From IMG/VR virus record IMGVR_UViG_646206259_000006: DNA of 17,564 nt, one strand, 5' to 3'. This DNA is from a virus. Taxonomy: Duplodnaviria > Heunggongvirae > Uroviricota > Caudoviricetes. Under the pieces are notes generated by a model. It was not told the DNA's origin. It did not search any database and was given only the letters and a program-made list of their open reading frames with translations. Below are positions 805-16,739 of this stretch, piece by piece. Both the position numbers and the translations under genes were made by a program. Numbering within the stretch: position 1 is the stretch's first letter; every line of letters starts with the position of its first letter.

Positions 805-830
805 AGCCATTTTAAGCCATCATGAGCCAT
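805..830. promoter_or_regulatory. Three AGCCAT hexamers at exact 10-bp phasing (805, 815, 825), with a fourth copy at 732, in the AT-rich region upstream of the alpA operon
   Basis: Direct reading: TTAGCCATTTTAAGCCATCATGAGCCAT. Helical-turn phasing suggests a protein-binding array. The binding partner is unknown. Confidence 0.3.
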
Positions 831-1010
831 TATAAACCGACTCAACCAATTGAATAATAAAAGATAAAAAGAAATGTAAAAACATGATGAATGACGATGA
901 AAGATATAACTCTTTGATAAAACAATGATTTTTTAAACTGGTAACTAATTGAAAATAAAGAAAATAATTATCCCACCTGTATTTGCAATCTTTCAGTGGA
1001 TCGGTATTTT

Positions 1011-1043
1011 TTCAATAGATTTATAATTTCTTTCAATAGATTC
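1011..1043 (+). promoter_or_regulatory. Putative alpA-operon promoter: perfect -10 TATAAT (1022-1027) flanked by direct repeats TTCAATAGATT (1011-1021, 1033-1043)
   Basis: Sequence reading only; no convincing -35 hexamer. A further AATAGA copy lies at 1051-1056. Confidence 0.3.
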
Positions 1044-1122
1044 TAGTCTTAATAGAAATACTGTATGGGCAACCACTAAACTTTAAGTAACTTCATGAGC
1101 TATCAGAGAGGTTACTAGAGAT

Positions 1123-1341
1123 ATGACAGCACACAAGCCAGCATCATCAGCTATCCCAACAACTGGATACATCCGTCGCTTTCGCATGCCGGAATTGCTA
1201 GGTGTTTCACTGCCTACTATTGATAGATGGGTTAAAAATGGCACTCTTCCACGCCCAGTGAAGCTAACAGATAACGTGACTGCGTTTGATGCGGTGGAAA
1301 TTAATAACTGGCTGGCAGAACGCCGCGGGAAGGTGGCCTGA
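1123..1341 (+). CDS. alpA: AlpA-family phage transcriptional regulator / excision-associated DNA-binding protein (72 aa)
   Basis: Small protein with the characteristic AlpA/prophage CP4-57 regulator HTH segment (RMPELLGVSLPTIDRWVKNGTLPRPVKL...NVTAFDAVEINNWL). GAGAGG RBS about 10 nt upstream. Stop overlaps the next start. Confidence 0.8.
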   Translation: MTAHKPASSAIPTTGYIRRFRMPELLGVSLPTIDRWVKNGTLPRPVKLTDNVTAFDAVEINNWLAERRGKVA

Positions 1342-1772
1342 TGGAAAAGAAAAACCGCCCATTACAGGCGGCTAATTCAGATATTCGCGTATCTGATATT
1401 ACGCCCCTTACAAAATCCCTTCAAGCACCAAAGCGCACACCGAAAAAGCATCGTGCCCGAGTCTATATGCTGCGTACTGGTATAGAGGGATGGACAGAAA
1501 ATGACATTCTTCGCTACTGCCGTCTGTCTTCTGGTCGTAACTATGCAACAGAGTTAGAACGCCAGCTTGGAATCACTCTGGAGCGTATCGACGAAAAGAA
1601 TCCTGATGGTATCGGAACACACCTTCGCTACCGTTTCTCCTGCCGTGGTGATGTTCTGAAAGTGATCACTCATGTTAACCATCTTGCGAACATAAATGAT
1701 CACAACGGACTTTCTCAGCAGGAAATTGCCGACATTCTGAAACTCTACCCGGACGCGTTTAACGCCGCCTAA
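1341..1772 (+). CDS. Hypothetical protein (143 aa), translationally coupled to alpA
   Basis: ATG overlaps the alpA TGA stop (TGATG). Basic N-terminus (PKRTPKKHRAR). No recognisable domain. Confidence 0.55.
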   Translation: MEKKNRPLQAANSDIRVSDITPLTKSLQAPKRTPKKHRARVYMLRTGIEGWTENDILRYCRLSSGRNYATELERQLGITLERIDEKNPDGIGTHLRYRFSCRGDVLKVITHVNHLANINDHNGLSQQEIADILKLYPDAFNAA

Positions 1773-1784
1773 CGGAGACTAAAA

Positions 1785-2618
1785 ATGAACATCGAAAAAA
1801 GCAGATTAATTTCTGAGGCCGCCCCTCATCTGAACGCCTCTCTGGGCACAATTAACGGTAATGAATTTGCCGCAATTGTCCCGGTTATTTCTGGTCATAT
1901 AGGTGGGCGTGAAACCAATATTGTTAGCGCAAAAGCGTTACACAAAGCGTTGGGCGTGGGAAAAGACTTCTCTACATGGATCACTGATCGCATCTCTGAA
2001 TATGACTTCACCATTGGGCACGATTACTCAGTCCATAAAACAATTTCCCCAAATTTGGGGAAAAGCCCGAATGGCGCGGCTTACAGCAAGATTAAGCACT
2101 CTGGCAGACCCGGCAAAGACTATCTGTTAAGTGTCGGAATGGCGAAAGAACTGGCAATGATCGAACGCAATGATCAGGGTCGCGCTATCCGTCGTTATTT
2201 CATCCAGTGCGAGGAAGAATTACAGCGTACCGTGCCTGAAATCGCCGCCCGCTATCGTCGCCAGCTAAAAGCCCGTATCAGTGCCGCAAACAACTTTAAG
2301 CCAATGTGCGATGCGCTGAACATGGCCCGTGCCGAGCAGGGGAAAACGACGCAGCAACACCACTACACAAACGAGAGCAATATGATTTCTCGTATCGTTC
2401 TTGGTGGGCTAACTGCTAAGCAGTGGGCGCGGATAAATGGCTATTCTGGCGAACCTCGCGACCATATGAACGCAGAACAGCTTGAGCACCTCTCATATCT
2501 CGAAAGCACCAATATCACGTTAATTGATATGGGCATGGAATATGAGCAGCGCAAAGGAGAACTCACCCACCTGTCGCAACGCTGGCTCGCCAAGCGTCTG
2601 GAGGCGCTCAATGTCTAA
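1785..2618 (+). CDS. Phage antirepressor-like protein (AntA/KilA-C-type), 277 aa
   Basis: GGAG RBS upstream. Sequence flavour of AntA-type antirepressor N-domain (…MIERNDQGRAIRRYFIQCEEEL…). Assignment is from memory of the family, not a search. Confidence 0.6.
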   Translation: MNIEKSRLISEAAPHLNASLGTINGNEFAAIVPVISGHIGGRETNIVSAKALHKALGVGKDFSTWITDRISEYDFTIGHDYSVHKTISPNLGKSPNGAAYSKIKHSGRPGKDYLLSVGMAKELAMIERNDQGRAIRRYFIQCEEELQRTVPEIAARYRRQLKARISAANNFKPMCDALNMARAEQGKTTQQHHYTNESNMISRIVLGGLTAKQWARINGYSGEPRDHMNAEQLEHLSYLESTNITLIDMGMEYEQRKGELTHLSQRWLAKRLEALNV

Positions 2619-2790
2619 GCCAACAGGAATACCACAACCACAAAAACGCTACAAAGATGCCCACGGAGCACTCGTTACTGTCGAAAGCGTGTCTCACAAC
2701 CGAGTGACGTTTTATCGCGACGGGTATCAATCGCCATGCGTACAACCGCTGGCGCGTTTCATGAAGGAGTTCGCGGAGGTTAACCAATGA
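2611..2790 (+). CDS. Small hypothetical protein (59 aa), possibly DUF4222-like
   Basis: ATG at 2611 preceded by GGAGG (2600-2604) and overlapping the upstream stop. The ORF-track call from 2524 is probably an over-extension. Confidence 0.5.
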   Translation: MSKPTGIPQPQKRYKDAHGALVTVESVSHNRVTFYRDGYQSPCVQPLARFMKEFAEVNQ

Positions 2791-3854
2791 TACCCGTCCA
2801 GAAGAAGACATTTTCACTGGCTGGTATGTCGCCAAAATCCAGCAATATGACAGCAAAGTCAGACATTAATACAGCAGATACAAGCAAAGTTTATCATTTG
2901 CTGGTGGTAGGAGCGGATGCCTTAACTATGTCAGAAATTACGGTCGATGGTGTTAGCGTTGAGAAGGTCAGCGGCTATGCCAGAGAATTTCTGGTCGTAG
3001 ATGGCTTTCTCTGCTCGTGTAGTGACTCCACAAAAACCTTCGTCCACGCGCGTGACGTTAACGAAATGAGCGCGATGTACTGTGCTTCTGGTTCTTCCAA
3101 TAGTGAGTTTTCGGAGTCCATAAAAAAGAGCTTGCCGTTATGCGGCAACACGGTTTATGGTTATAAGGCACCTCATAAAACGGGTGCCGGGATTGGCGTC
3201 CTGAAAATTCTGAAGGCGACATATGACGCGCCGAGCGTCTTTTTTTATGTCGTAGGTCTGACTCACCCATTTTTTGGGCGTTGGTGTATAATCCAGCGCC
3301 TTTGTCAATCAATGGTGGCTCAGGCGGGGGCTTCTTCGGAAGCGCCGGTATCCTTCAGAGCCGGTTACGCCAACCCTGTCTGGGCTACCACCAGCGAAAT
3401 TGGCGTTTCCGGTGGTAGCGTAACCTGCTATCTGAAGGAGGCTGCCACATGCTGGCTACTACCCCTACCCAAAAAACGCAATTTATCTGGATTATCGCCG
3501 CAGTTCGCCGCGATTGCCCGACAATTACCGCCAAAATTCATCATATTGCTGCCGAGTCTGAACGCGATGCTCGCCGTTCTCTGGTGCGCGATCACATCTG
3601 CTTTTTTGCTGGTCGTATCCGCATGGAGGTGGCACATGATTAAAAACTACGATGTGCATATGGATCCCCTCGAACGCACAAGCCAGATCATCACACTGAC
3701 AGAAGTGATTAACGACATTCTGGTGAGCAACTCTCCCTCACGAGACGAAAGACTGAAGGCGTTACTCGCGATATTGGATCTCGCCGTTCGTGACGTTCAT
3801 TTCCTGCTGGAAGGTGGCGAAATGCCAGTAAAAACGGGGGCAACCAATGAATAA
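2787..3854 (+). CDS. Hypothetical protein (355 aa as an uninterrupted ORF); 3' third may be a separate small gene starting at ATG 3636
   Basis: ATGA start/stop overlap with the upstream gene and GGAGG RBS at 2775-2779. No in-frame stop until 3854. The stretch about 3240-3636 is W/C/L-rich like a non-coding frame. ATG 3636 has its own GGAGG RBS. Confidence 0.45.
3449..3643 (+). CDS. Alternative small ORF (64 aa) nested out of frame inside the 2787..3854 ORF
   Basis: Strong RBS GAAGGAGG (3434-3441) 7 nt before the ATG. Protein-like composition. Frame opens after a TAG at 3416-3418. Cannot be real together with an intact long ORF unless genes overlap extensively. Confidence 0.3.
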   Translation: MLATTPTQKTQFIWIIAAVRRDCPTITAKIHHIAAESERDARRSLVRDHICFFAGRIRMEVAHD

Positions 3855-4041
3855 CTCAATTAATACCCCTCGCCTTACGTCCGCACTTCAATTAATCGAG
3901 CAAGCAGCGGCTGTCCTGGTTGCTGTCAGTCTTTCGGCTGAAGAAATGGACGCTACTGATGTCGTGGATGCGATTAAAGCGTGCTCATCTTTGGTTAACG
4001 ATGCCCGTGCAGAGCTGGTAATTCTTGGGGGTGAAAAATGA
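3847..4041 (+). CDS. Small hypothetical protein (64 aa)
   Basis: ATG overlaps the upstream stop (ATGAATAA). Part of a coupled chain of small ORFs. Confidence 0.5.
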   Translation: MNNSINTPRLTSALQLIEQAAAVLVAVSLSAEEMDATDVVDAIKACSSLVNDARAELVILGGEK

Positions 4042-4301
4042 ATATCAACTTAATTTATCGTCATCCGTGTGAGCTGGAAATTGAATCATTGCTGAGCCGT
4101 GAAGAGCCATATCCAGACACATTCACTCTTGCAGATCGCACGACTGAACGGCTTACCAGAGCGCGCACAGGTCTGGTTCATGTGATGAATGAGATTCTTC
4201 CATCGGTGGGAGGGGAACAGGCGACAGTAATCAATAGCTGGCTACAAAAAGTTACCTCCCTGATAGATATCAGTTTAATCGATGTGGAGAGTGCGAAATG
4301 A
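4038..4301 (+). CDS. Small hypothetical protein (87 aa)
   Basis: ATGA start/stop overlap with the upstream ORF. Confidence 0.5.
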   Translation: MNINLIYRHPCELEIESLLSREEPYPDTFTLADRTTERLTRARTGLVHVMNEILPSVGGEQATVINSWLQKVTSLIDISLIDVESAK

Positions 4302-4519
4302 CCAACATCCAGCTCATTGAAGCGCAATGTCGCATCGAACAGGTTCAGACTGTTTTAGGGTTCTGGCTTGAAGGGGCCAGCCCAAGCAACAGAGACAAGT
4401 TAATGATTGGCGCGGTTATGTCACTGCTCAATGGCGTACCAGAAGCTATTCAGGAAGCGGACGAATTGTTGGGCAAATATGAGTTACAGAATCATTCAGG
4501 CGAGGCGAAACATGAATAA
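4298..4519 (+). CDS. Small hypothetical protein (73 aa)
   Basis: ATGA start/stop overlap with the upstream ORF. GGAGAG upstream. Confidence 0.5.
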   Translation: MTNIQLIEAQCRIEQVQTVLGFWLEGASPSNRDKLMIGAVMSLLNGVPEAIQEADELLGKYELQNHSGEAKHE

Positions 4520-5114
4520 TTTCTTAACCTTCCATGCAGAAGCAACGCCTGACGGCGTAAACATCATGCACCGCAGCAACAATGGCATGACAGAACGCGT
4601 TGAGACCGTCTCATATATTGATGCCGTAAATCGTCTGGATGCCGGGGATTATGACGATAAACCAGATGAAGGCATGTTTATACATCTCGCTATTGCCAGT
4701 GGCGGCAACCAGGGATATTTCGATTACACATCACAGCATCACGTGATTATGTGGCGCTGGCTGATAGCAACAGCATTAATCAATGAAATGAGAAAGGAAA
4801 ACGGCACCGTCAGCATTATTGATGACAGTGGCAATCATTCCGTGGTTTCTGTTTATTCCAATGGCATCGTCGCCATGCCGCTGTATCCAGTAGCAGAGCG
4901 CCTCGCTATGGCAAACAACATTGAGGGCGCAATGATCGAGAAATATGGTGTTGATGTCGGAACAAAGAATGCCATCATTTTTTACAGCAACATGTTCGAT
5001 GTCGAACAGGGAACACTCACTTCGTTTGGGCGAGAAGTGCTTGCCGATCTTCACAACAGCTTTATTGCCGAACTAAACGAAAACGGCATCCCAGAAGCAC
5101 CAGTGACGCACTAA
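4512..5114 (+). CDS. Hypothetical protein (200 aa); alternative longer start at 4407
   Basis: ATG 4512 overlaps the upstream stop (ATGAATAA), matching the coupling pattern of the operon. The 4407 start would overlap the previous gene by about 110 nt. Confidence 0.55.
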   Translation: MNNFLTFHAEATPDGVNIMHRSNNGMTERVETVSYIDAVNRLDAGDYDDKPDEGMFIHLAIASGGNQGYFDYTSQHHVIMWRWLIATALINEMRKENGTVSIIDDSGNHSVVSVYSNGIVAMPLYPVAERLAMANNIEGAMIEKYGVDVGTKNAIIFYSNMFDVEQGTLTSFGREVLADLHNSFIAELNENGIPEAPVTH

Positions 5115-5126
5115 ACGGGGGCCAGA

Positions 5127-7478
5127 ATGCGAAACATTGATCTTATCCGTCAGGTTATCAGTGCGTCTGAAAACAACTGGCCTCATGTGCTGGGCTGCCT
5201 GAACATAAATGTCCCTGACTCTCCGCGCCGTCATGCTCCCTGCCCTGCATGTGGGGGCAAAGACCGATTCCGGTTCGATGACAACGGGCGCGGTAGCTTC
5301 ATCTGTAATCAGTGCGGCGCTGGTGATGGGCTGGATTTAATTAAACGCGTAAATAACTGCGACACAACAGAGGCGGCGCTGCTTGCCGCTGATGTTCTGG
5401 GTATTGATTACCGGACAACGGAAACACCAGAAGCCACCAGCCAGAAACGGGAACAACTGGAAACCGAGCGCCAGCGACGCGAACAGGAGCGCCTGAAAAG
5501 GGCAGAGAAGGACGAACAACAAAGACGGGATACGTTTTCCCGTCAGTTTGATGACATGCGCAGAAAGGCTGTAAACGGCAAATCTGATTATCTGGTTGCG
5601 AAAGGGGTAGGTGATTTTACATTCCCTGTGTTGCCCGATGGATCTCTGTTGCTGGCGCTGGTGGATAAATCCGGCGCAGTTACAGCAGCACAGACTATTA
5701 CCTCACATGGTGAAAAAAGACTCCTGACAGGTTCAGCAAAGCGAGGGGCATATCACGCCATAAACGCACAGAAACGACCTCACAGCATCATAATTGCTGA
5801 GGGGGTGGCTACCGCCCTGTCGTGCCATTTAATTCGCCCTGACGCAATGACAGTGGCAGCAATCGACGCTGGCAACCTGTTGCCAGTAGCGGAAGTCATG
5901 CGCAGAACATATCCACAGGCACAAATCATCATTGCCGCAGATAACGATCACCAGCAAGGAAACTCCGAAAGTGGAGGGATCAACACGGGGAAAGATGCCG
6001 CAGAGAGGGCCGCTATTTCCGTAGCTGGCTGGGTGTCTCTGCCACCGACTGACTATAAAGCCGACTGGAACGACTATCACCAACAACACGGGCTGGCGGC
6101 AGCCACAGCAGCATTTAAAGATTCGATGTACCAGCCACGGGGGAAAGGGGCGCAGGTGAAAAATCACAAACAGTCAGTCGGGGCGCTGAATGAGATCAGT
6201 TCTGGCGAGGTGTTAAGCGATGATGAAATTGCTGTCCTCGAAGAAATCAACCGGACGTTTACGCATGTCACCATCGGCGGGAAACACAAGGTGGTGTCGC
6301 TAAAGCCTTCTCAAACCGGCGGTGTATCGCACGTTTTCGAGGATTTATCACAATTTCAGCATTATTTTCATCATAAACCGAGAGTCGCCAGAAAGCTGGC
6401 GGGATCGGCGTGGCTGTCATGGAGTGGGAAGAACTACAAGCCAGGAGGCGTAGGATTTTATCCAGTACCAGACAAATGCCCTGACGATGTTTTTAATCTG
6501 TATGAGGGGCTGGCACTGGAACCAATTGAAGGAGATTGCACGGTATACCTTAATCACCTGTTGCAGGTTGTCTGTGCCGGTAATGAAGAGGCATACCAAT
6601 ATCTTATCCAGTGGATGGCGCACATTATCCAAAAGCCTGATGAAAAACCGTCCGTGGCAATCGTGATGAAATCTGTCCCGGGCACAGGGAAAGGCACAAC
6701 GGTTAAACCGCTGCTGCAAATACTGGGGCAGTACGCCGCCCACATTAACGGGGCGGGACATATTTCAGGGCGCTTCAATTCAATACTTGCTAACAAGCTA
6801 CTGGTATTTGCTGACGAAGTGACGATCCACAAGCCGTCTGAAGCTGACAGACTTAAAGCGATTATTAGCGAACCGACGTTTAACCTTGAGCGCAAGGGAA
6901 TTGATGCTGAACCAATGCCGAATTTTGCCCGGTTGATATTTGCCAGTAACAGCACACAGGTATTACAGGCAGGGATAAGAGAGCGCCGCTATCTCGTGCT
7001 TGAGCCATCTCCTGAAAAAGCACAGAGCCGGGAGTATTTTGATCGGCTGTACAGTTGGCTTAATGATGGCGGTGCCGCAAAGTTGCTTTGGCATCTTAAA
7101 GGGGTGGATCTCTCAGGTTTTGACCCTCAACGAGCGCCACAGACCGATGCCTTACGTGAAGAAATCTTGCTGGGGCTGTCTGGCGTTGAATTGTTTCTTT
7201 ATGGCGAGCTAATCAATGAACCTCCGTTTAATGGCGAAGTCCGTTTGTTTGCAAAGGATATGGTTAGTCGGTTTGTAGCGTGGTCGCTTGAGCGTGGGGA
7301 AAAGCTTAAAGAACCAGCTGCCAGATCACTACTGGGTAAATCACTTGCACAAATGGGGCTGGTGAAGCATGGAAGACCAGACCGAGGGAATGGCGTGTTC
7401 TACGAACTACCAGAGGTCGGAGTTCTACAGGCTGCGTTTGCCCGTCTGATCGGTATGGGGGGTTATGATGTTTTTTAA
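5127..7478 (+). CDS. P4-alpha-like primase-helicase (783 aa)
   Basis: N-terminal CxxC…CxxC zinc-binding motif (CPACGG…CNQCGAG). TOPRIM-like segment (IIIAEGVATALS, IIIAADNDHQ). C-terminal P-loop (VPGTGKGT) and DExx-like box (LLVFADEV). Iteron cluster immediately downstream. Confidence 0.85.
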   Translation: MRNIDLIRQVISASENNWPHVLGCLNINVPDSPRRHAPCPACGGKDRFRFDDNGRGSFICNQCGAGDGLDLIKRVNNCDTTEAALLAADVLGIDYRTTETPEATSQKREQLETERQRREQERLKRAEKDEQQRRDTFSRQFDDMRRKAVNGKSDYLVAKGVGDFTFPVLPDGSLLLALVDKSGAVTAAQTITSHGEKRLLTGSAKRGAYHAINAQKRPHSIIIAEGVATALSCHLIRPDAMTVAAIDAGNLLPVAEVMRRTYPQAQIIIAADNDHQQGNSESGGINTGKDAAERAAISVAGWVSLPPTDYKADWNDYHQQHGLAAATAAFKDSMYQPRGKGAQVKNHKQSVGALNEISSGEVLSDDEIAVLEEINRTFTHVTIGGKHKVVSLKPSQTGGVSHVFEDLSQFQHYFHHKPRVARKLAGSAWLSWSGKNYKPGGVGFYPVPDKCPDDVFNLYEGLALEPIEGDCTVYLNHLLQVVCAGNEEAYQYLIQWMAHIIQKPDEKPSVAIVMKSVPGTGKGTTVKPLLQILGQYAAHINGAGHISGRFNSILANKLLVFADEVTIHKPSEADRLKAIISEPTFNLERKGIDAEPMPNFARLIFASNSTQVLQAGIRERRYLVLEPSPEKAQSREYFDRLYSWLNDGGAAKLLWHLKGVDLSGFDPQRAPQTDALREEILLGLSGVELFLYGELINEPPFNGEVRLFAKDMVSRFVAWSLERGEKLKEPAARSLLGKSLAQMGLVKHGRPDRGNGVFYELPEVGVLQAAFARLIGMGGYDVF

Positions 7479-7507
7479 TATAGTCTTTTTACAAGAAGAT
7501 CGTTTTT

Positions 7508-7611
7508 ACCTGTACCACCTATACCACTTTGCTAATTCAGCATTAAAAACAATGCGTTATAGTGGTACAGGTCAATATCTTACCTATACCAGACCTGTAC
7601 CACCTATACCA
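7508..7611. repeat. Iteron cluster 1 (putative origin): 19-bp direct repeat ACCTGTACCACCTATACCA at 7508-7526 and 7593-7611 with an inverted TGGTACAGGT copy between them
   Basis: Direct reading. Lies immediately 3' of the primase-helicase gene in an AT-rich context, the usual position of the ori in P4/PICI-type elements. Confidence 0.7.
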
Positions 7612-7654
7612 TTAACAAACGCATTTCTTCTGGCTGGCTGAGAGGGAACAACCA

Positions 7655-7885
7655 ATGATGAGCACACCATTTTACAAAGTGCGCCAGTTAGCTTCTTCCT
7701 CTGGCTGGCAGCTACGGTTTGAGGGGCGTTCAGACTGGCTACCCATTGCGGCATGGGCGAATGTTGAAATGTGTATTGACGGCGATACCGTTGAAATCAT
7801 TATTCCCTGCGTGGCAAGTCGGGACGGCTGTATAGAGCCAACAGATATGGCAGCAGAAATCAGAGAGGTAAAACATGAACAATAA
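7655..7885 (+). CDS. Hypothetical protein (76 aa)
   Basis: AGAGGGA RBS upstream of ATG. Stop overlaps the next start. Confidence 0.5.
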   Translation: MMSTPFYKVRQLASSSGWQLRFEGRSDWLPIAAWANVEMCIDGDTVEIIIPCVASRDGCIEPTDMAAEIREVKHEQ

Positions 7886-8612
7886 CTATTGCATACTGCA
7901 GGGAATGACCAGAACGGAGCGCGAAGAATTAAAAAGTTTCGCTACACAGTGCGGGAATGCTGGCGACATCCAAAGTCTGGAACGCACTTTAATTATGATT
8001 GCGCACTGGATGCGCCAGGGGCAAAGAGTTTCATTTACTGAATATGCCAGCCAGTGGACAGAGGCACAGCGCGAACGGAGCGACGGTAATCACTCAACAC
8101 CCGAAATGGCGAAGCAATGGCCTTTCAGTGGTAAACGCTGTATCAGTCCCGGTGGTTCAGATTATTACCCTGCTGGTGTGGGAGATGAGCCATGTTGTGA
8201 CGAGACTGAAATCCGCCACGCAGTGACAGTAATTACCGCTGAATACCCACAATTTAACCTTGACGGACTGGCGCTCCACAACCGGAATGCGGACTGGGAA
8301 AACCCGCTTGATAACCCGTCATTTATCGTATCGGCGAAAAGCTGCCTGAGATGGATCAGAGACAACGGGATGAGTAATGCCCAGATTGAGAGCTTCCCGC
8401 AGGATAACCCCACATCTGACACGTTGAAGCATGAAGTGGAGCGATATAACCAGATAAACCACCAGCACAGTGATCACCCGCACTATATCCCCAACGGAGC
8501 ATTTATTGCGGCGATGGTGGCAAGCGGCTACAAGGTTAAGCCAGCGGGAAGAATGAACGCATTTTTCAATATTTCAAAAAAGGGATTATGTGCTGCTATG
8601 GGTAAAAATTAA
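7875..8612 (+). CDS. Hypothetical protein (245 aa)
   Basis: GAGAGG RBS. ATG overlaps the upstream stop. No recognisable domain. Sits between the two iteron clusters. Confidence 0.55.
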   Translation: MNNNYCILQGMTRTEREELKSFATQCGNAGDIQSLERTLIMIAHWMRQGQRVSFTEYASQWTEAQRERSDGNHSTPEMAKQWPFSGKRCISPGGSDYYPAGVGDEPCCDETEIRHAVTVITAEYPQFNLDGLALHNRNADWENPLDNPSFIVSAKSCLRWIRDNGMSNAQIESFPQDNPTSDTLKHEVERYNQINHQHSDHPHYIPNGAFIAAMVASGYKVKPAGRMNAFFNISKKGLCAAMGKN

Positions 8613-8617
8613 ATAAA

Positions 8618-8721
8618 TGGTACAGGTCTGTACAGGTGGGGAGAGGTCATTTTTACCCACCTGTACCACCTGCAGGCCGCGCCACACAAGGGTTTGTGAC
8701 ATGGTGGTACAGGTGGTACAG
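8618..8721. repeat. Iteron cluster 2 (crr-like): at least four copies of the GGTACAGG/CCTGTACC core in both orientations
   Basis: Direct reading: TGGTACAGGT 8618-8627, CTGTACAGGTGG 8628-8639, CCACCTGTACCACC 8657-8670, GGTGGTACAGGTGGTACAG 8703-8721. Same core as cluster 1. Confidence 0.65.
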
Positions 8722-9085
8722 CAAAAACAGCGATTTTCTTTATAAGGTATGTTTTGCTCATCTGGCAGACGGAGGTATTCGCTGCGGTTTGGCACATAGC
8801 CCAGAACAGCAAAGAGTTTTACGAGACTTTTGTAAAATCCAGTGTACAAGGGCGTGACGTTTTTGAAGGTGAGCACTACGAAATTTTCGTAGTTCAAAAA
8901 ATAGCCTCTGAGATGTTGTTATGCCTGTTCAGCAAACCATCCGCATAGCTGATCGCGAATCAAATTACCAATGGAGCCAGAAGCAAGGGCAGAACTGGAA
9001 AGCGCCTGCCGTGAAGAGTAATGCGACTCCATAAATATAGTTTTTAGAGTCCATAAAAAAACTGTCAAAACCTGACATACAGAAC

Positions 9086-9119
9086 GATGCCACCAGCTAC
9101 TGAACGGTGGCATTTTTTT
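9086..9119 (+). terminator. Rho-independent terminator (8-bp stem, 11-nt loop, T7 run)
   Basis: ATGCCACC (9087-9094) pairs with GGTGGCAT (9106-9113), followed by TTTTTTT. Separates the replication module from the downstream cargo operon. Confidence 0.6.
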
Positions 9120-9216
9120 GTGCTATTTGTTTCATATTTTGCAATCACAATGATGAATGTTGCGTTTTATGAAACTATAATGACTGTTGTTTTATACAGT
9201 TCTAAGGGGGGCGTTA

Positions 9217-9389
9217 TGGCTATTTCAGTAAAGCCAGTATTGATAAGTGAGAAGCAAATGGAAGCGATAAAGAAAATTCAGGAGGAGCAGCGTAAAAAAT
9301 CAGAGGTAGGAGTTGCGCCAACGATCCACGAAATTGCTCGGGGATTAATGGATAAGGCGCTGGCTTACACTTTAACTGGACGTGGGTAA
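9217..9389 (+). CDS. Small hypothetical protein (57 aa), possibly ribbon-helix-helix-like DNA-binding
   Basis: AAGGGGGG RBS 5 nt upstream. Perfect -10 TATAAT at 9176-9181. The ORF-track call from 9087 is likely an over-extension. The RHH guess is from the beta-strand-then-helix pattern only. Confidence 0.45.
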
Positions 9390-9393
9390 ATTT

Positions 9394-10737
9394 ATGGCTA
9401 CGTGGCAACAGGGTATTAATTCTGGTGGTTTTCTGGCTGGCATCGGTGCGCAAAATGAGAATGCGCCAAAGGCAAGCGACATTAACGCAACGCTTGGTCT
9501 GATCCGCGAAAACAATGAACTGGCTCGCTCAGGTGCAAATAACGTTGCTCTGACAGGTCTTCGTGGTCTGGCTGGAGTTGCTGACATTTATAAGCAGCAG
9601 CAACAGCAGGAACGTAAAGCGGCATTCCAGAAAGGTTATGCAGATGCTTATGCGTCCGGTGACAGGGAGCAGATGCGTAATCTTATTACAGCATTCCCAG
9701 AAGAGTTTGAGGAAGTCCGTAAAGGGATGAGTTATGTCGATGATGCTCAAAGGGATGATTATGGCAATCTGGCGCTCAAAGCACAGGTAGCCTCATCGCT
9801 TGGTCAGGGCGCATTTGGCAGGTTCATGATGGATAATGAGCAGGAGATGCGTCGTTTAGGTATCCCTCCAGAAACTATTGCTGAAATGCAGGTTAATGAC
9901 CCGCAGGGCTTCCAGCATTTCGCAGGTAATCTGGCGCTGTTTTCTCTCGGTCATGAGAAGTATTTCGATATCAAAGATCAAATGGAAGGTCGTCGACTTG
10001 AGCAAGGGCGACTGGATGAAAGTATGCGTCAGGCTGACATGGAGAACGCGAGAGGATGGGCAAATATCCAGAACGCTCAACTAGACAGGGCTCAGCGAGC
10101 ACAAATTCACTCAGATGAGATGGGATTGAAGCTAATGGAGCTGGGGCAAAAAGGTAAGCCGTCAGCAGACTTAATTAAGGGATTAAATTCTGACATTACC
10201 AATTTTGGCAAAAATTATAACTCTGTCAGAGCGGCGGCAAACTCTCTGCAAGCCCTTAGCAAGGTAAATACTGGCGCTGCCCAACTTGGGATTATCTTCA
10301 ACTACATGAAATCTCTTGACCCGCAGTCAGTCGTTCGTGAAGGCGAACAGGTTCAGGTAATGCGGTCTGATGGCATATGGGGACAAATCAAAGGATACAT
10401 AGACCAGCTTAATGCTGGAAACGGCCTGTCGCAGGAGGCAAAGGATAACATTGTTAACGCCGCAAAAATCAACGCCAATGCTATGGGGCAGCAGTTTAAC
10501 CAGCAGGTTGACGAGTATCTCGATACATATGGAGAAACTATTCCTCAGGGGCTAAGAAAAAGCCTTGAAAGAAGGAAAGCGAAGCTATTTGACGATGTTT
10601 CCGGGCAGCCTACATCACAGGCTGGCACTGGACAGGCAAAAGCGGCAACCGGAGGAATATCAGAAGGCGCAACGGCAACCAACCCTAAAACTGGTCAGAA
10701 AATCATTTACAGGAACGGAAAATGGCAGCAAATGTAA
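9394..10737 (+). CDS. Hypothetical large protein (447 aa from ATG 9394; alternative GTG start 9382), Q/N/A-rich and predicted largely helical
   Basis: Long ORF with coding-like composition. No catalytic motif seen (no P-loop, HNH or PD-(D/E)xK). Low-complexity poly-Q stretch (QQQQQ). Flavour of phage internal/ejection or scaffold-type proteins; function unknown. Confidence 0.6.
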   Translation: MATWQQGINSGGFLAGIGAQNENAPKASDINATLGLIRENNELARSGANNVALTGLRGLAGVADIYKQQQQQERKAAFQKGYADAYASGDREQMRNLITAFPEEFEEVRKGMSYVDDAQRDDYGNLALKAQVASSLGQGAFGRFMMDNEQEMRRLGIPPETIAEMQVNDPQGFQHFAGNLALFSLGHEKYFDIKDQMEGRRLEQGRLDESMRQADMENARGWANIQNAQLDRAQRAQIHSDEMGLKLMELGQKGKPSADLIKGLNSDITNFGKNYNSVRAAANSLQALSKVNTGAAQLGIIFNYMKSLDPQSVVREGEQVQVMRSDGIWGQIKGYIDQLNAGNGLSQEAKDNIVNAAKINANAMGQQFNQQVDEYLDTYGETIPQGLRKSLERRKAKLFDDVSGQPTSQAGTGQAKAATGGISEGATATNPKTGQKIIYRNGKWQQM

Positions 10738-12839
10738 TCTTACCGGAAGGTTTTGTGCTCGATGAACAACCTGATAACTCACAGTTTCCTGATAGTTCAC
10801 AGCTTCCTGATGGTTTTGTGCTTGATGCCCAACCAGAACAGCAGCAATCACCTTTGGTTTCACCAGAGGAAAATTCCAGACAGGAAAATGTTGTTAATAA
10901 TGCTAACGGTTTCGACCGTTTTATGTATGGCGTTCTCAGTGGATTGATGGATGTTGGTAAAGGTGTTGGCCTGTTTCAGGATATGACACCAGAAGAGCAA
11001 GCCGCAATTCAGTCTCTACAGCAGAAGTTAGCGGCAAAACCATCAACCGCACAAGATGTTGGTGAGTTCGTTGGACAAGCAGCGCCATTTGTTAGTGGTG
11101 GTGGGATTATTTCTCAGGTTCCCAAAGGGGCGGCAAGACTGGCTGCCGCCGTAGGGCTTGGTGCTGGAGAAGGGGCTATTGTAGCCAATGGAACAAATAG
11201 CGATGTTGCTTCCGGCGCTGCTATTGGCGCTGTGGCTGGCCCTGTAGCCGAACTTGCTGGCCCTGCAATTAATAAAATAGCTGGGAAATTAACCAAGAAG
11301 AATGTTTCTTCGATTCCAGATATTGAGGGGATTACTCCTGCCGAAGAGAAAATTCGTAAGTTATCTGCACAAGGCAACCCAAATCTTGCCTCTTCGCTTG
11401 AAGGGCTAGATCTAAAACCTCAGAAAGAAATTGTTGAGGCTGCAAATAGGCTTCATGTTGATTCAGTTCTTCCTTCTCATTTATCAGGAAATGAGCAATA
11501 CCAAGCTGTAGAGCAAGCCCTAAAGTCACGGACAGGATCAGCGTTAAAAGCTCAAGAAGATAAAGCAATAAGCGAATTAGCCTCTAGTGCTGACAAGATA
11601 ATCGATGATGTTGCTGGTGCGCCAGATGCGTTAGCTATGAGCGAAAAATATATTTATCAGATAAATAGTAGAATGGAAGCACTAAAAAACCGTAGTGATC
11701 AGTTATATAAACGTGTTGATTCCGCTCTATCACCAAGAACAAAAGTCGAAGCAAATAACACAAGCACTATGCTGGAAAAAATCGCTGATGATTTAGGAGG
11801 GTGGGATAATCTTGACCCAATAGAAAAGCGAGTTTTTACAGCAATAAACCCCGGCCCAGATAGCATCCTAACGTATGCAAATTTAAACAGGCAAAGGCGT
11901 TTAGTTGGTGATGCCCTAAATAAAAAGCAGGGGCCATACAAAGATGCTGATAAAGAAGCGCTATCAAGACTATATGGAGCTTTAGCTGAAGACCAAAAAT
12001 CTGTCTTATCCAATACTGGATACTTGCGAGATTTCGAAGTCGCACAACGCCTTGTAGCTATGAGAAAAAACTTAGAAAGGCAAATGGTAAATCTTCGCGG
12101 GAAAACACTTAATGGGGATATAGCGTATAAAGTAACGAATTCTCTTCAATCTATGGCAAAAGGTGATGCGAGAGGGTTTCGTGAGATTATGCAAAATACT
12201 CCATCAAGAACATTGCGAAGGGAGCTAGTAGGAACAGCATTAAGAGATATGCTTTCCTCTGGGAAGCGTGGGGCCGACTTTAATCCATCTGGCTTTGCAG
12301 ATTGGTGGCAAAACTTGCAACACAGTGGACAGCTAAAGACTTTGGCTGAACATTTGCCAAAAGAAACAATGAGCGGACTATATGATGTATACAAAGTTGC
12401 CAGAGCAATAAAAAATGCTAAAGCGCATGAAATATCTACTGGTAAGCTGAATGAGTTTGTAAACAGATTTAATCGGGTAACAGCTCCATACGAACTAGCA
12501 GCAAAACACATTCAAAAAATAGGCACGATGGTAGGCGCTCATTTTGGATCGCTTGGAGCCATTGCTGGGGCTGATATTGGAGCAAGATTGGCGAGTAAAG
12601 CTCGATTAGCTGGTGGAGCAGGGGCGGCTGATGCTGCGGATAAATTAATTGCCTCGCCAGCCTTCCAGAGCGCAGTAAAAAATCTACACGGAAAAGCGCC
12701 TGGGCACATTGTTGATTCACGTATCAGGCGCTCCCCTCAATGGAAGAGTTTTTTTAACTCTCTTCCTGAACAGGAAAAACGGACCATCGCCAGACTGGGC
12801 ATCATTACTTGGCTATCTAATGATCCAGATAATGACTAG
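10722..12839 (+). CDS. Hypothetical large protein (705 aa) with N-terminal tandem peptide repeat, Gly/Ala-rich segments and a long helical middle
   Basis: Overlaps the upstream gene by 16 nt, so co-transcribed. N-terminal repeat PEGFVLDEQP / PDGFVLDAQP. GxxxG-rich segment (GLGAGEGAIVANG…AIGAVAGPVAELAGPA) and C-terminal Gly/Ala hydrophobic stretch (GAHFGSLGAIAGADIGARLA). No enzymatic motif recognised. Confidence 0.6.
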   Translation: MAANVILPEGFVLDEQPDNSQFPDSSQLPDGFVLDAQPEQQQSPLVSPEENSRQENVVNNANGFDRFMYGVLSGLMDVGKGVGLFQDMTPEEQAAIQSLQQKLAAKPSTAQDVGEFVGQAAPFVSGGGIISQVPKGAARLAAAVGLGAGEGAIVANGTNSDVASGAAIGAVAGPVAELAGPAINKIAGKLTKKNVSSIPDIEGITPAEEKIRKLSAQGNPNLASSLEGLDLKPQKEIVEAANRLHVDSVLPSHLSGNEQYQAVEQALKSRTGSALKAQEDKAISELASSADKIIDDVAGAPDALAMSEKYIYQINSRMEALKNRSDQLYKRVDSALSPRTKVEANNTSTMLEKIADDLGGWDNLDPIEKRVFTAINPGPDSILTYANLNRQRRLVGDALNKKQGPYKDADKEALSRLYGALAEDQKSVLSNTGYLRDFEVAQRLVAMRKNLERQMVNLRGKTLNGDIAYKVTNSLQSMAKGDARGFREIMQNTPSRTLRRELVGTALRDMLSSGKRGADFNPSGFADWWQNLQHSGQLKTLAEHLPKETMSGLYDVYKVARAIKNAKAHEISTGKLNEFVNRFNRVTAPYELAAKHIQKIGTMVGAHFGSLGAIAGADIGARLASKARLAGGAGAADAADKLIASPAFQSAVKNLHGKAPGHIVDSRIRRSPQWKSFFNSLPEQEKRTIARLGIITWLSNDPDND

Positions 12840-12858
12840 TGAATGGCCACGGATGGCC

Positions 12859-13284
12859 TCAATCTTTATTCTTTGAAATAGAGTCATTGATCTTTTCGAA
12901 ACACCAATGAAATCCACAAAAGAGAGCTACACCAATATAACAATACAAAACTATCAACCACCTTTCAGTGTCCGAAGGGTAAAAAACATCAATTACATAA
13001 GCAACACCAATTGGTATTAATGCTAGTAATAACATCGACACAGGACGTACAAACTTCTGAACTATATCAATTTTATAGAACCACAAGGCGGTATGTTTAA
13101 TGATATAAGTAAAGATGGCTGCGCCAATAATGGCAAAAAACACCATCGATAAAGTCGGGTATAACTTTGCGACAATTAAACCCAACAAAATAATTATAAC
13201 TGCCTGCCCCCTCACACCAACCCTCCCTTTAGCTTTGTTTAGAATGGCAATCATCATATATCCAAGACATGGCATTTGGTACAT
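12859..13284 (-). CDS. Small integral membrane protein (141 aa, about 4 predicted TM helices); function unknown
   Basis: Four hydrophobic stretches of about 18-20 aa (AVIIILLGLIVAKL, MVFFAIIGAAIFTYII, SMLLLALIPIGVAYVI, LIVLYCYIGVALFCGF). Convergent with the 705-aa gene, separated by 19 bp containing a small GGCCA-cgga-TGGCC hairpin. Confidence 0.5.
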   Translation of the reverse strand: MYQMPCLGYMMIAILNKAKGRVGVRGQAVIIILLGLIVAKLYPTLSMVFFAIIGAAIFTYIIKHTALWFYKIDIVQKFVRPVSMLLLALIPIGVAYVIDVFYPSDTERWLIVLYCYIGVALFCGFHWCFEKINDSISKNKD

Positions 13285-13375
13285 AGCTTGGGTCGGGATT
13301 TCAAATCCGCTCCCCGTTGATGGGGCCGTTACAGTACGCGCATATCCGCTTTATGTGAAACAGGAAGATTTTTCT

Positions 13376-13476
13376 GATATCACTGCCACAGCAAAACACC
13401 AATTTCGTGACCAGTACGCGCGCGAGGGGTATCAGTTGCAAAAATTTTGCAACCACGTCCGACCAGTACGCACACG
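13376..13476. repeat. Non-coding repeat block: two copies of an alternating-CG motif (CCAGTACGCGCGCG / CCAGTACGCACACG) flanking the inverted repeat TTGCAAAA-A-TTTTGCAA (13436-13452)
   Basis: Direct reading. A related roughly 55-bp sequence recurs at 16285-16338 and a shorter copy at 13688-13711. Confidence 0.5.
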
Positions 13477-13687
13477 ATGGCGGGGGATACCATGAAACTG
13501 TTCTCTACACGAGACAGAGTGGTGGTGATGTGTTGATTATCGGCGTATATGCGCACAGGACGCGCTATGACGATGTTTTATGCGGGTACACCAATCACAT
13601 GTATCTGGTGTGATAAATCGCGTTACATGACCTCTCATGTTGTGCTGGTGGTTATCACGACTTTCTGAATCTGGCCTTTGCCTGATA

Positions 13688-13711
13688 TTTTGCGACAAGT
13701 ACGCGCGCGTA
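13688..13711. repeat. Third copy of the CG-alternating motif, containing the perfect palindrome TACGCGCGCGTA
   Basis: Direct reading: TTTGCGACAAGTACGCGCGCGTAGC. Confidence 0.45.
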
Positions 13712-14165
13712 GCATCGAAATTATCGGATGGCGTATGCTGCTGGCAATATGAAGACCGATAGTATTAACCGAAAAGCGAAAGAGCTTCTCGATAACGGCA
13801 AGATCGCGGCAAGGGTTGCTGAATTTGAACAGATGTAAGGAATGGAACCAGAGAGGCGCTGGCGGCGAAAAAACGCCACTACCAGCGGATAAATGTGCCA
13901 ATCTTTTAGTTGGAAAAACAGCATAGAAGGCTACCATGATATGTAAAGATTGCTCAAAAAGTTATTATCAACGTCTAATTTCATTAAAAATGCTCCTTAT
14001 TGCTGTTAAAAATCAAAGAAATCATTTAAAAACCGTTCAACACCCCCCATCTGTCTTCAAAAAGATTTGTGTTGGTTAGTGACTAGTTACCTTTTATATG
14101 TAAATATATCCACAAGGGAAGTGGTGAAAATTTCGACTATTTAACCATAATCAAAGGAGGTGAAC

Positions 14166-14648
14166 ATGTCGAATACATCTGCACATGCCCTCTTGAAAGA
14201 TATCTGGGGCGATAGGAAATTCCCGGTTGATCCAGTATGGATTGCCAATGAGTTAGGGTTGGATGTTGTTGAAACCACGCTTGATGATGATGTTTCAGGC
14301 GCATTGCTGAAAGAGCCAGAACAAGATCCAGTAATCATACTCAATCGTAATGATAGTAACGTGCGCAAACGATTTACGTGTGCGCATGAGTTAGGGCATT
14401 ACGTCAAACGAACTGAGAACGGTCAGCCACTTGAATATGAGTTTGTTGATTACCGCGGAAAACTGGCAAGCCAAGGTGTAGACAGCGAAGAAATATTCGC
14501 CAATAACTTTGCAGCATGTCTTCTCATGCCAGAAAAAGAGGTTCGACGCCTCAACAATGCAGGATATGCACCAGTAATGATGGCTTCCTATTTTGGTGTA
14601 TCCGATGATGCTATACGTTATCGCCTAAAGAATTTAGGGCTTCGATGA
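14166..14648 (+). CDS. ImmA/IrrE-family (DUF955-type) zinc metallopeptidase (160 aa)
   Basis: AGGAGG RBS (14155-14160). HEXXH zinc-binding motif (CAHELGHY) in the context typical of ImmA/IrrE peptidases. No HTH domain detected in the protein itself. Confidence 0.7.
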   Translation: MSNTSAHALLKDIWGDRKFPVDPVWIANELGLDVVETTLDDDVSGALLKEPEQDPVIILNRNDSNVRKRFTCAHELGHYVKRTENGQPLEYEFVDYRGKLASQGVDSEEIFANNFAACLLMPEKEVRRLNNAGYAPVMMASYFGVSDDAIRYRLKNLGLR

Positions 14649-14651
14649 GTA

Positions 14652-15029
14652 ATGACGTCTAGATCTTACGCTATATCTGAAAAACTAAAGCAAGCGGCAA
14701 GACAAGCCAGAGGTGAACCAGCCTCTGGCTCATCTCCATCAGCAAAAACCCTCACACATCTAAATGATAAGGATCCAGCCAAAGCCCATCAGCGTGCAAA
14801 AACAAAAGATTTAAAAACAGACACAAAACTGAAAAAAATGTTTGCTCGGTGGTTTATCGGCATTCTGATAGGCCAGCTATTAGTTATGAATGGGATTTTT
14901 GTCCTTATTGGAGCAAAACTGCTCCATTTTAGTGATTTCGTTATAAACCTATTTATGGGGGGAACCCTCGCTGAAGTCTTTGGCATTGTTTTAGTGATGG
15001 CACGCTACCTGTTCTCCAAGCACGTCTAA
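14652..15029 (+). CDS. Small membrane protein (125 aa): basic hydrophilic N-terminus plus two C-terminal TM helices; coupled to the peptidase gene
   Basis: ATG 3 nt after the peptidase stop. Hydrophobic stretches FIGILIGQLLVMNGIFVLIGAKLL and LFMGGTLAEVFGIVLVMARYLF. Confidence 0.5.
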   Translation: MTSRSYAISEKLKQAARQARGEPASGSSPSAKTLTHLNDKDPAKAHQRAKTKDLKTDTKLKKMFARWFIGILIGQLLVMNGIFVLIGAKLLHFSDFVINLFMGGTLAEVFGIVLVMARYLFSKHV

Positions 15030-15045
15030 AAATCAAAATATAGGG

Positions 15046-15489
15046 CTACATTCTTAGAGCCACTGATAACTTTTCAGCATTGCTTCCCTGACGCTTCCAC
15101 GCGCTGTAAATGTCTTTATCCCATGCTTTACCAGCTTTTGTTTGATAGCCTGCTTCATTGAGCCGTTCCGCTATCACACGCCCATTATCAAATCCCTGTT
15201 GGATGGTATCGGCAATGATCTTTATAACTGCCGTTTCGTTATATGGCTTTGGTGGGATGTTCGGCTTTCCGGCAATAAGCGACGCAGCGGCTTTTTCCAT
15301 GCGCTCCACCAGCCCAAGCATTCGTGAATCAATAGACTTTTCCGGCTGTCCCAGCTTCATGCGAATCGCATCAACAAGCCAGGAGGTTTTATCCCCTCCA
15401 GAAGCGAGAACAGACCGATTAAACTCATCCTGCAATTCAGATGGGATGCGGAACGCGATCAGATTAGATTTGCTCATTGCAAAGACCAT
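15046..15489 (-). CDS. Putative DNA-binding regulator (147 aa): ribbon-helix-helix-like N-terminus with a serine-recombinase 'Recombinase'-domain-like C-terminal segment
   Basis: N-terminus NLIAFRIPSELQDEF…SWLVDAIRMKL resembles the RHH fold (Arc/MetJ/CopG). C-terminus IAERLNEAGYQTKAGKAWDKDIYSAWKRQ resembles the LNxxGxxTxxGxxW motif of the recombinase DNA-binding domain. Start could be ATG 15489 or 15477; neither has a clear SD. Confidence 0.5.
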   Translation of the reverse strand: MVFAMSKSNLIAFRIPSELQDEFNRSVLASGGDKTSWLVDAIRMKLGQPEKSIDSRMLGLVERMEKAAASLIAGKPNIPPKPYNETAVIKIIADTIQQGFDNGRVIAERLNEAGYQTKAGKAWDKDIYSAWKRQGSNAEKLSVALRM

Positions 15490-15590
15490 ATCAGTGAGTA
15501 ATATCCATACAGTATACCACTGTATAACACTGTTATACGCTCAAATATCAGCCAGAAAATAACGGACCAATCACAAAGCTATCGCTGTGT

Positions 15591-15735
15591 TGTTGGTTCA
15601 GAGCTGGGCTGTGTTGGTTCAAAATGAGTTGATGTTGGTTCAACATTTCAGAAAAAACACAATAAAAACAACGATCTTTACAAATTAAACCAACTGAACC
15701 AACTGAACCAACACCTTTTTGCTTATCTATATAAT
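15591..15735. promoter_or_regulatory. Divergent promoter/operator region: three direct TGTTGGTTCA repeats at 21-bp phasing (15591, 15612, 15633), two tandem inverted copies TGAACCAAC (15695-15712), and a perfect -10 TATAAT (15730-15735) for the plus-strand gene
   Basis: Direct reading. The inverted copies sit where the -35 of the PerC-like gene promoter would be. A related half-site TGTTGGTTAG occurs near 14071-14080 upstream of the peptidase gene. Confidence 0.55.
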
Positions 15736-15748
15736 CTGAGAGGCAGAA

Positions 15749-16036
15749 ATGATAAGGGACAGGAAAGCTGAAGAGCTGGAGTCAAAAGGGCTATACCGGA
15801 GAGCTGCCGCACGATGGGCAGAAGTCATGATGCTGGCAGATGGCGATAAAGAACGTGAACATGCAGCAAACAGACGCTCTGAATGTATCCGTAAGGCGGC
15901 ACGCCCACCAGCAACTACAGACAGATTCGGAGATTTAAGACAGGCAGTTAAGCGGACTCATTCGGCTCTTGGTATGGATGAGGAAGCGAGAGGGTACTTC
16001 AGGCGTTATCGCGATAAAGATTGCCAGAGACAGTAA
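15749..16036 (+). CDS. PerC-family transcriptional regulator-like protein (95 aa)
   Basis: N-terminal AEELESKGLYRRAAARWAEVM matches the conserved PerC/Pch N-terminus as remembered. GAGAGG RBS. Confidence 0.55.
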   Translation: MIRDRKAEELESKGLYRRAAARWAEVMMLADGDKEREHAANRRSECIRKAARPPATTDRFGDLRQAVKRTHSALGMDEEARGYFRRYRDKDCQRQ

Positions 16037-16284
16037 TGCTCTCTCTCTGTTTTGGCAAATTCCCCCTCACTTTGAAGGGATCGGAGCTATAAAAATGGTG
16101 TTATCCGGCTTCCTGCATTGTAGGTTTTCGAAAAAATCAATGGGTTAGGTCATCGTGCAAATTTGCACTCTGCCAGCCAACGCAATTTCTCGTTGGCGAA
16201 AATATCAGGTATTTACTGAACGAACGGTCTACCAGTCTATTCAGTTACCAGTTGCACATGGCTGTTTCATGTGAGAACGGAGGT

Positions 16285-16338
16285 TTTTTCGGACATCACT
16301 ATTGGTTACAGCAATTTCACGAGCAATACGCGCGCGCA
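16285..16338. repeat. Fourth copy of the CG-alternating motif family (ATCACT…CAATTTCACGAGCAATACGCGCGCGCAGG), related to 13376-13428
   Basis: Alignment by eye: shared blocks ATCACT, ACAGCAA, CAATTTC and TACGCGCGCG in the same order. Confidence 0.45.
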
Positions 16339-16553
16339 GGACAACAAGCCTGAACATAGTTACACACCTCGATCGTGAGGGATGTAGACAATGGCTTCTG
16401 GCCAAAGCACCCGAAAAAAACCGTGTACATAAGGGTGTACATAATCAAAAACCGCATTAGAAATAAACCAGCTTCAATGCGGCATTGAAGCCAATACTCT
16501 ACAAACAGATCCAAATAACTCGTAACGCCAATTCTTCCTTTTCAGCCTTCACA

Positions 16554-16586
16554 AATGCCGCCCACTCAAACAGAGCGGCATTTTTC
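16554..16586 (+). terminator. Rho-independent terminator (8-bp stem AATGCCGC/GCGGCATT, 13-nt loop, T5 run)
   Basis: Direct reading of 16554-16586. Confidence 0.5.
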
Positions 16587-16675
16587 CTCCCCGCAACATT
16601 CAATTCTGTTTTGCGTGCCTGCTCCAGATTTTGCGATGTTTTTTTGCCCAGCGCAGTGAGAACGTGAGATACTCA

Positions 16676-16696
16676 CAACTGTATATAAACACAGTT
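16676..16696. promoter_or_regulatory. LexA (SOS) box-like palindrome AACTG-N11-CAGTT upstream of dinD
   Basis: AACTGGTATATAAACACAGTT read directly. Canonical LexA boxes are CTG-N10-CAG, and this site is one base longer between the CTG and CAG half-sites. Confidence 0.5.
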
Positions 16697-16739
16697 GTAA
16701 ACTTACTTTCCTTGCAATCGATATCATATGGAGTGGGCA

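Follow-up and report, generated by a model that had tools for sequence, protein, structure and literature searches.

A small membrane gene carried by a P4-like integrative element of E. coli appears, from its gene order, to take the place of sieA in a P22-type module of ejection proteins. We judge the chances to be even that its product does the work of SieA without being homologous to it, blocking the entry of P22-like DNA at the inner membrane, the basis of this proposal being position only. The presence of an apparently unrelated family at the sieA locus is new to this analysis, and the protein is put forward as a candidate new phage-exclusion protein. The stretch of DNA analysed (17,564 nucleotides, hereafter the window) is identical to an integrative element of ~17 kb between yicC and dinD of E. 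coli PA45B, and the small gene lies in the following part of it.

10722..12839, plus strand: 705-aa ejection ('DNA transfer') protein in the gene-16 position, sequence 'type W' (phrog_6704, 7e-175; phrog_770, 9e-51).
12840..12858, no strand: gap of 19 bp between the convergent stops, with the hairpin GGCCA-CGGA-TGGCC at 12845-12858, read from the sequence.
12859..13284, minus strand: ORF of 141 codons with an ATG start, from the ORF call.
12859..13215, minus strand: most likely true CDS, a four-helix membrane protein of 118 aa with a GTG start and 35% GC, occupant of the sieA slot (from the end of inter-locus identity, the Shine-Dalgarno sequence and the homologue starts).
13216..13284, minus strand: in-frame upstream extension of the 141-aa ORF, a 5' leader with the Shine-Dalgarno sequence GGGAGG, identical in loci L005, L006 and L004, whose downstream genes are unrelated.
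13212..13779, minus strand: conserved non-coding leader or regulatory block of ~570 bp upstream of the slot (inter-locus identity 96-98%).

The preliminary description had placed a 141-aa protein convergent to the 705-aa gene and 19 bp beyond it, and the ORF is present as described, the stop-to-stop distance between 12859..13284 (minus strand) and 10722..12839 (plus strand) being 19 bp, with the start now revised to the GTG at 13215 and the product to 118 aa. Its length is weak evidence for a gene, since ~0.09 open stretches of at least 141 codons are expected by chance in the window at its composition; for stretches of at least 118 codons the expectation is ~0.5. This number, and the fact that the family carries no annotation, would fit an ORF that arose by chance or is decaying within AT-rich spacer DNA, but this reading is very improbable given the homologues, which are conserved in length (118, 118 and 147 aa, at 48, 40 and 35% identity, respectively), share the motifs IIIILL..LIV.KLY and P.G..Y.ID...P and differ from one another with a pN of 0.31-0.42, far below a saturated pS of 0.70-0.83. 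A strong Shine-Dalgarno sequence precedes the gene in all four lineages in which it was found, and the window's copy is intact, at ≥99% identity, in 86 genomes. Based on the length-conserved homologues, the low pN relative to pS and the Shine-Dalgarno sequence in each, the small membrane ORF is a real gene. Small palindromes akin to the hairpin in the window's gap are also found in the matching gaps of loci L010 and L016.

The true start is almost certainly the GTG at 13215-13213. It was chosen because the upstream ~570 bp (window 13212-13779), which are 96-98% identical in a DNA alignment of four loci with differing downstream genes, lose their identity precisely at ...AAAGGGAGGGTTGGT-GTG, because GGGAGG (about 13222-13227) is placed 6 nt 5' of this codon, and because the codon aligns with the start of every homologue (ATG in P0008 and P0017, GTG in L016). 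PGAP also placed the start of the L006 gene that occupies this slot at the equivalent GTG. The first 23 codons of the 141-aa ORF, as well as the start of the 131-aa PGAP call, thus appear to be 5' leader in translated form, and the extension at 13216..13284 is probably not translated natively. The leader is open in frame, so that gene callers lengthen unrelated cassette genes upstream through it (window 13216-13284); as a consequence the database proteins P0009, P0015 and P0016 falsely share the N-terminus MMIAILNKAKGRVGV with the window ORF.

Inspection of the leader itself revealed a candidate sigma-70 promoter at 13747-13720, five copies of CAGTACGCGC at 13332, 13412, 13464, 13556 and 13697, a perfect 9-1-9 palindrome, GTTGCAAAAtTTTTGCAAC, at 13435-13453 and a further palindrome, GGATTTgAAATCC, at 13296-13308. 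The block could be a regulatory region or some other cis-acting site. Two other interpretations were considered and rejected, namely a structured RNA (fold z = +0.32) and a phage origin, as no match was found in phage genomes.

The four hydrophobic helices reported earlier for the small protein agree with our data, in that Kyte-Doolittle hydropathy gives four hydrophobic segments and an AF2 model, built from a three-sequence alignment and of low confidence (pLDDT 64, pTM 0.42), shows four helices at residues 2-18, 20-46, 50-78 and 82-115. Positive charge is found in loop 2 (residues 40-57, net +2 to +4) and in the Lys-rich C-terminus, and since the positive-inside rule puts both in the cytoplasm, an N-in/C-in topology is predicted. 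The two periplasmic turns predicted by this topology, KLYP and FYPSDTERW, are very short. Residues invariant among the first three lineages concentrate in TM1 (11 of 15) and from the end of TM3 through loop 3; in the predicted topology the conserved TM3-loop-TM4 region faces the periplasm. The low GC content of the gene (0.35, compared with 0.46 for the window) is a moron signature, and the gene is oriented opposite to the structural genes.

No match above cut-off was obtained for the small protein in PHROGs, PADLOC or NCBIfam, and a tblastn search with the 141-aa protein gave none among 50,697 phage records. Membership of the Bax1-I family (Bax inhibitor-1 / YccA) was rejected, the scores being 23.8 bits with the 141-aa protein and 18.8 bits with the 118-aa version, compared with a Pfam cut-off of 34.1; the match was not reproduced by the homologues P0008 and P0017 and is likely an effect of hydrophobic composition. 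A sub-threshold match to CBO0543 was likewise judged compositional.

The identity of the large neighbour bears on the reading put forward in the preliminary description, in which the 705-aa protein is a pore-forming bacteriocin and the small convergent gene its immunity partner. The protein is Gly/Ala-rich, as had been observed (45-48% G+A in residues 115-185 and 598-645), and this, with a small four-TM gene on the opposite strand behind it, is the arrangement that favours a bacteriocin. However, a Pfam scan gave no Pfam family and no colicin domain, and the gene follows a homologue of gp20 in the order (14)-(7)-20-16 and matches a DNA-transfer family. Its product is 61% identical to the gene-16-position protein of a metagenomic phage (L007), 41-44% identical to those of the P22-like phages Kapi1 and E212 and 58% identical to the C-terminal region of that of Sf101. 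The gp20-gp16 synteny of the 705-aa type recurs in L007, L003, L008 and L009. Direct BLASTP shows no pairwise similarity between the 705-aa protein and P22 gp16, and it is for this reason treated as a different sequence type, for which we use the name type W. No relatives of the gp16-type or gp20 proteins were found in the PDB, and no gp7 remnant was detected 5' of gp20 in the window. By homology and gene order the 705-aa gene encodes a DNA-ejection protein of P22-like phages and not a bacteriocin. The co-occurrence check that had been suggested points the same way: the large type is found in phages without the small protein and the small protein beside an unrelated gp16 type, so that there is no obligate toxin/immunity pair, and a bacteriocin with its immunity gene is hardly credible. 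Within E. coli, 84 intact junctions were counted among 87 cassettes, which is uninformative in this respect because all copies are ≥99% identical and represent a single lineage.

In P22, gene 16 ends at 13313 and is followed after 22 bp by the convergent sieA (13336..13830), and the same layout, with a gap of 21 bp, is found in prophage HS1 of E. coli HS, whose type-B SieA has been shown experimentally to exclude P22-like phages (PMC10883804). The gap after the gene-16-position gene is 19 bp in the window, 21 bp in L007, 17 bp in L010 and 23 bp in L016 and L017. The small gene is convergent with the gene-16-position gene and directly follows it, and by synteny this is the sieA locus of the P22 gene order, which in P22-like modules lies between the homologues of genes 16 and 9. 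The sister elements have backbone and leader in common with the window, with other genes placed after the same GTG. In L006 (strain SLK172), which has the same leader and the same GTG, the slot holds a 204-aa SieA homologue (BLASTP 8e-8 to P22 SieA and 2e-9 to HS1 SieA; phrog_7745 'SieA-like', 4e-4) carrying NRYPGEA, a partial SieA motif. Other occupants are a secreted protein of ~125 aa (phrog_2651) in L005 and a different four-TM protein of 114 aa in E. coli 042, strain 83972 and O111 strain 11128, and in phage Kapi1 two secreted proteins are found at the sieA slot. The 114-aa protein has only TM1 in common with the window protein, through a recombination junction at 13153, and this P0015-type cassette was rejected as a distant homologue beyond the recombinant TM1 (shuffle z = 1.0). 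Of 5426 complete E. coli genomes, 467 (~9%) contain the slot leader; 87 of these carry the window's cassette and ~164 the 042-type, and in ~214 the match breaks at the GTG. The sieA slot is thus a general cassette site, and position alone is no proof of exclusion activity.

Relatives of the small protein are rare. When 1.84 billion cluster representatives were searched exhaustively with HMMER, only three full-length lineages came up; a search of IMG/VR added a fourth, and species-representative genomes gave no further relatives. The four lineages are as follows.

Window: 705-aa type-W gp16, 19-bp gap, 118-aa protein.
L007: gp7, gp20, a 701-aa protein and a 118-aa protein, then Arc/Mnt regulators and an antirepressor.
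L010: integrase, tailspike, a 147-aa protein and a partial gp16.
L015-L017 (IMG/VR, phage-sized contigs): gp10, gp26, gp14, gp7, gp20 and gp16, in this order.

In all four the small gene is convergent with, and 17-23 bp beyond, the gene-16-position gene of a P22-type module, and the same searches found the family nowhere else. Three of the four adjoin type-W gp16, with neighbours at 61% identity and at 25% identity (E = 4e-19), and an exclusive tie to this type, which held for three of three lineages, was overturned by the IMG/VR lineage, where the neighbour is a P22-type gp16, 52% identical to P22 gp16, in two variants. Conversely, tblastn against the 50,697 phage records showed that Kapi1, E212 and Sf101 carry type-W gp16 without the small protein, and three different cassettes are found beside the type-P gp16 proteins of the sister elements, even though these proteins share 94-98% identity. 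The family therefore goes with the slot rather than with any single gp16 type.

The module itself is mosaic, as seen when the window is compared with its sisters by blastn.

9394..10737, plus strand: homologue of gp20, a P22 injectosome protein (Pfam Inj_translocase, 2.5e-73).
9993..13211, no strand: mosaic block of 3.2 kb comprising the gp20 C-terminal part, type-W gp16 and the cassette (blastn, window against L005 and L006).

Both flanks, 8807-9992 and 13212-13779, match L005 and L006 at 97% identity and nothing matches in between, from which the block 9993-13211 appears to have been exchanged as a single unit relative to these two elements. The N-terminal ~212 aa of gp20 are 95% identical between window and L005 and the C-terminal two-thirds differ, the C-terminal part switching together with the gp16 type (window compared with L005, L006 and L011). 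It has been inferred previously that the gp20 C-terminus and gp16 must match in order to work (PMC10883804), and the co-switching seen here fits this. The dN/dS of the ejection genes between sister elements is 0.14-0.27; part of the gp16/gp20 divergence may have accumulated in phages before exchange.

The transfer of the gp20 C-terminal part, gp16 and cassette as one block, the type-W neighbour in three of four lineages and the roughly parallel divergence of the two proteins (48%/35% for the small protein, 61%/25% for gp16) would also be expected of a cognate partner of the type-W ejection proteins, which might shield the producer membrane from gp16, in an 'immunity-like' manner, or aid assembly. 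We consider this improbable, as the two P22-type variants of the fourth lineage do not fit it, Kapi1, E212 and Sf101 have a functioning type-W gp16 but no small protein, the convergent orientation uncouples the small gene from late-operon expression, and adjacency alone suffices to explain the linkage.

The element that carries the module has an unusual composition, and its remaining features are listed here.

1-16700, first part, in order: integrase, small HTH regulator, AntA/AntB antirepressor, 'Ash' ORF, P4-alpha-like primase.
1-16700, second part, in order: gp20 homologue, 705-aa protein, small membrane gene, ImmA/IrrE protease with a 125-aa TM protein, 147-aa protein, PerC.
3168-3245, plus strand: isrK RNA (Rfam, 67.8 bits), inside the 355-aa 'Ash family' ORF 2787-3854.
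3308-3395, plus strand: C4 antisense RNA (Rfam, 79.9 bits), inside the same 355-aa ORF 2787-3854.
13780-15055: second variable slot, with genes at 14160-14648 and 14652-15029.

The isrK and C4 RNAs lie directly beneath the Pfam Phage_ASH match (aa 124-232, about nt 3156-3482), and this protein match may partly reflect the conserved RNA genes. The second slot encodes an ImmA/IrrE metalloprotease (PADLOC capP, 4.9e-25) followed by the 125-aa protein, which has two C-terminal TM helices, and it looks like a defence hotspot because in sister elements (L005, L006) an Abi family protein occupies the equivalent position. Two different kinds of iteron set are present (window 7510-7604, 8661-8721 and 15592-15712), with CTGTACCACC/GGTGGTACAG directly after the primase gene and GTTGGTTCA/TGAACCAAC flanking an AT-rich core near PerC, a pattern that resembles P4 ori plus crr. 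In sisters with a DUF927-type primase the GTTGGTTCA/TGAACCAAC set is found directly after the primase gene, and the comparison suggests that the C-terminal domain of the primase was swapped together with its origin in the window element. A 120-bp inverted repeat flanking the module, considered as a candidate, is absent from the window, the match being to an iteron cluster.

Sister loci of the element are L005, L006, L011 and L012. Like P4-like satellites and PICIs, the window element has an integrase, an HTH regulator, an Ash region with C4/isrK immunity RNAs, an alpha-type primase with iteron clusters and a variable defence slot, and it is devoid of capsid, terminase and tail genes. Unlike them, it carries intact P22-type ejection genes, gp20 and gp16 in the window, to which the sisters in E. 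coli 042 and 83972 add gp14 (DUF2824) and a gp7-sized ORF, and the record has no psu, delta or sid-like annotation. Neither a lambda or P2/P4 cos site nor a P22 pac site was found in the window. The literature searched contains no report of satellites carrying ejection proteins, which does not prove their absence, and the element family may perhaps be the more surprising object than the small gene. If these elements are podovirus satellites, satellite-encoded ejection proteins would be a new strategy of hijacking or interference.

In light of these data, we propose that the small gene would be an accessory gene ('moron') in the sieA locus of the P22-type ejection module on this P4-like element of E. 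coli. Because it runs opposite to the ejection-gene operon, it would probably be active in the resident element rather than while virions are being made. The 118-aa protein would sit in the inner membrane and keep an infecting P22-like phage from finishing or using its gp20/gp16 trans-envelope conduit, so that DNA entry would be blocked as with P22 SieA; its inner-membrane location, the timing of its expression, its exclusion activity and its target are what we infer. The layout of P22 and HS1, the position of all four lineages in the slot, the SieA allele in the sisters, the helices and the moron signature are consistent with exclusion and bring it, in our estimate, to an evenly poised case. 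The preliminary description had named superinfection exclusion as a fallback, and this is supported by position, at the sieA locus and with a SieA allele in the sisters.

A different envelope moron at the same cassette site, for example an abortive-infection or toxic membrane protein, another form of envelope protection or a host-fitness factor, would not act on the ejection conduit at all. That the slot houses unrelated cassettes, secreted proteins among them, that the neighbouring slot contains genes of a defence type (an Abi family protein in L005 and L006; in the window, ImmA/IrrE and a TM protein) and that the small protein has no homology to known exclusion proteins all agree with such a role. 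A generic moron would, however, be expected in other contexts as well, and the family lies directly behind gene 16 of a P22-type module in all four of its lineages and was found nowhere else in the 1.84 billion representatives or the species-representative genomes, so that we regard this alternative as doubtful, though with appreciable weight. Blockage of the conduit, if true, would provide in a second, unrelated protein at the sieA locus an independent probe of gp20/gp16 assembly at the inner membrane, and would show the sieA locus to be a site of swappable exclusion cassettes. A bolder version, which we think unlikely, is that the 118-aa protein represents a structurally unrelated injection-blocking class aimed at the gp20/gp16 conduit, on a portable ejection and exclusion module of undescribed P4-like satellites that parasitise or interfere with P22-like podoviruses. 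Such satellites might either supply ejection proteins of their own to particles built by the helper or use incompatible ones to poison phage progeny, and at the same time keep competing phages out.

Among known systems, the window pair resembles pore-forming colicins and their immunity proteins in that a small multi-TM gene lies on the opposite strand directly after the gene of a large membrane-active protein; it differs from them in that the large protein is, by homology, a virion ejection protein with no colicin domains, and in that the pair is not obligate. T4 Imm and HK97 gp15 are examples of small inner-membrane proteins, encoded by a phage or prophage, that stop the genome entry of related phages. 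Their phage types and genomic contexts differ from those of the window, and they are compared here only through the PHROGs and PADLOC scans, in which the small protein had no match.

The closest parallel is SieA of P22. Leavitt et al. described three mutually homologous SieA types, all in P22-like prophages, and showed that SieA blocks injection, with escape mutations in gp16 and gp20; no other characterised factor is known to act against the P22 ejection-protein conduit (PMC10883804). The intuition of the preliminary description is close to this published case, SieA being a small protein of the inner membrane that acts against a large membrane-active one whose gene lies beside its own (PMC10883804). 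As sieA is present in only 22 of 66 P22-like phages (PMC10883804), there is room for other occupants of its slot. By sequence and profile comparison the small protein is not homologous to SieA: BLASTP gave E = 2.1 with P22 SieA (type A) and E = 64 with the HS1 type B, there was no match to phrog_7745 at E <= 1, and hhalign of the family alignment (A3) with a 13-sequence SieA alignment (A5) gave a probability of 2.3%. Hhalign was used for this comparison as the Pfam set scanned was without PF26849 and P22 SieA itself was unmatched there. A regex search found the conserved C-terminal cytoplasmic motif of SieA, FxRYPxEAxxFNK (PMC10883804), as FGRYPGEANGFNK in P22 SieA, and did not find it in the small protein. 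Unlike SieA (164-212 aa), the window protein is shorter, at 118 aa, is without the 40-50-residue soluble loop and without this C-terminal motif and, unlike the published types in P22-like prophages, resides in a non-phage integrative element. Like P22 SieA (types A, B and C; phrog_7745 / PF26849), it is a small, predicted polytopic membrane protein on a P22-type ejection-protein module, encoded convergently right after gene 16 in the slot that precedes the immI and tailspike region, where it is allelic with the SieA homologue of the sister elements.
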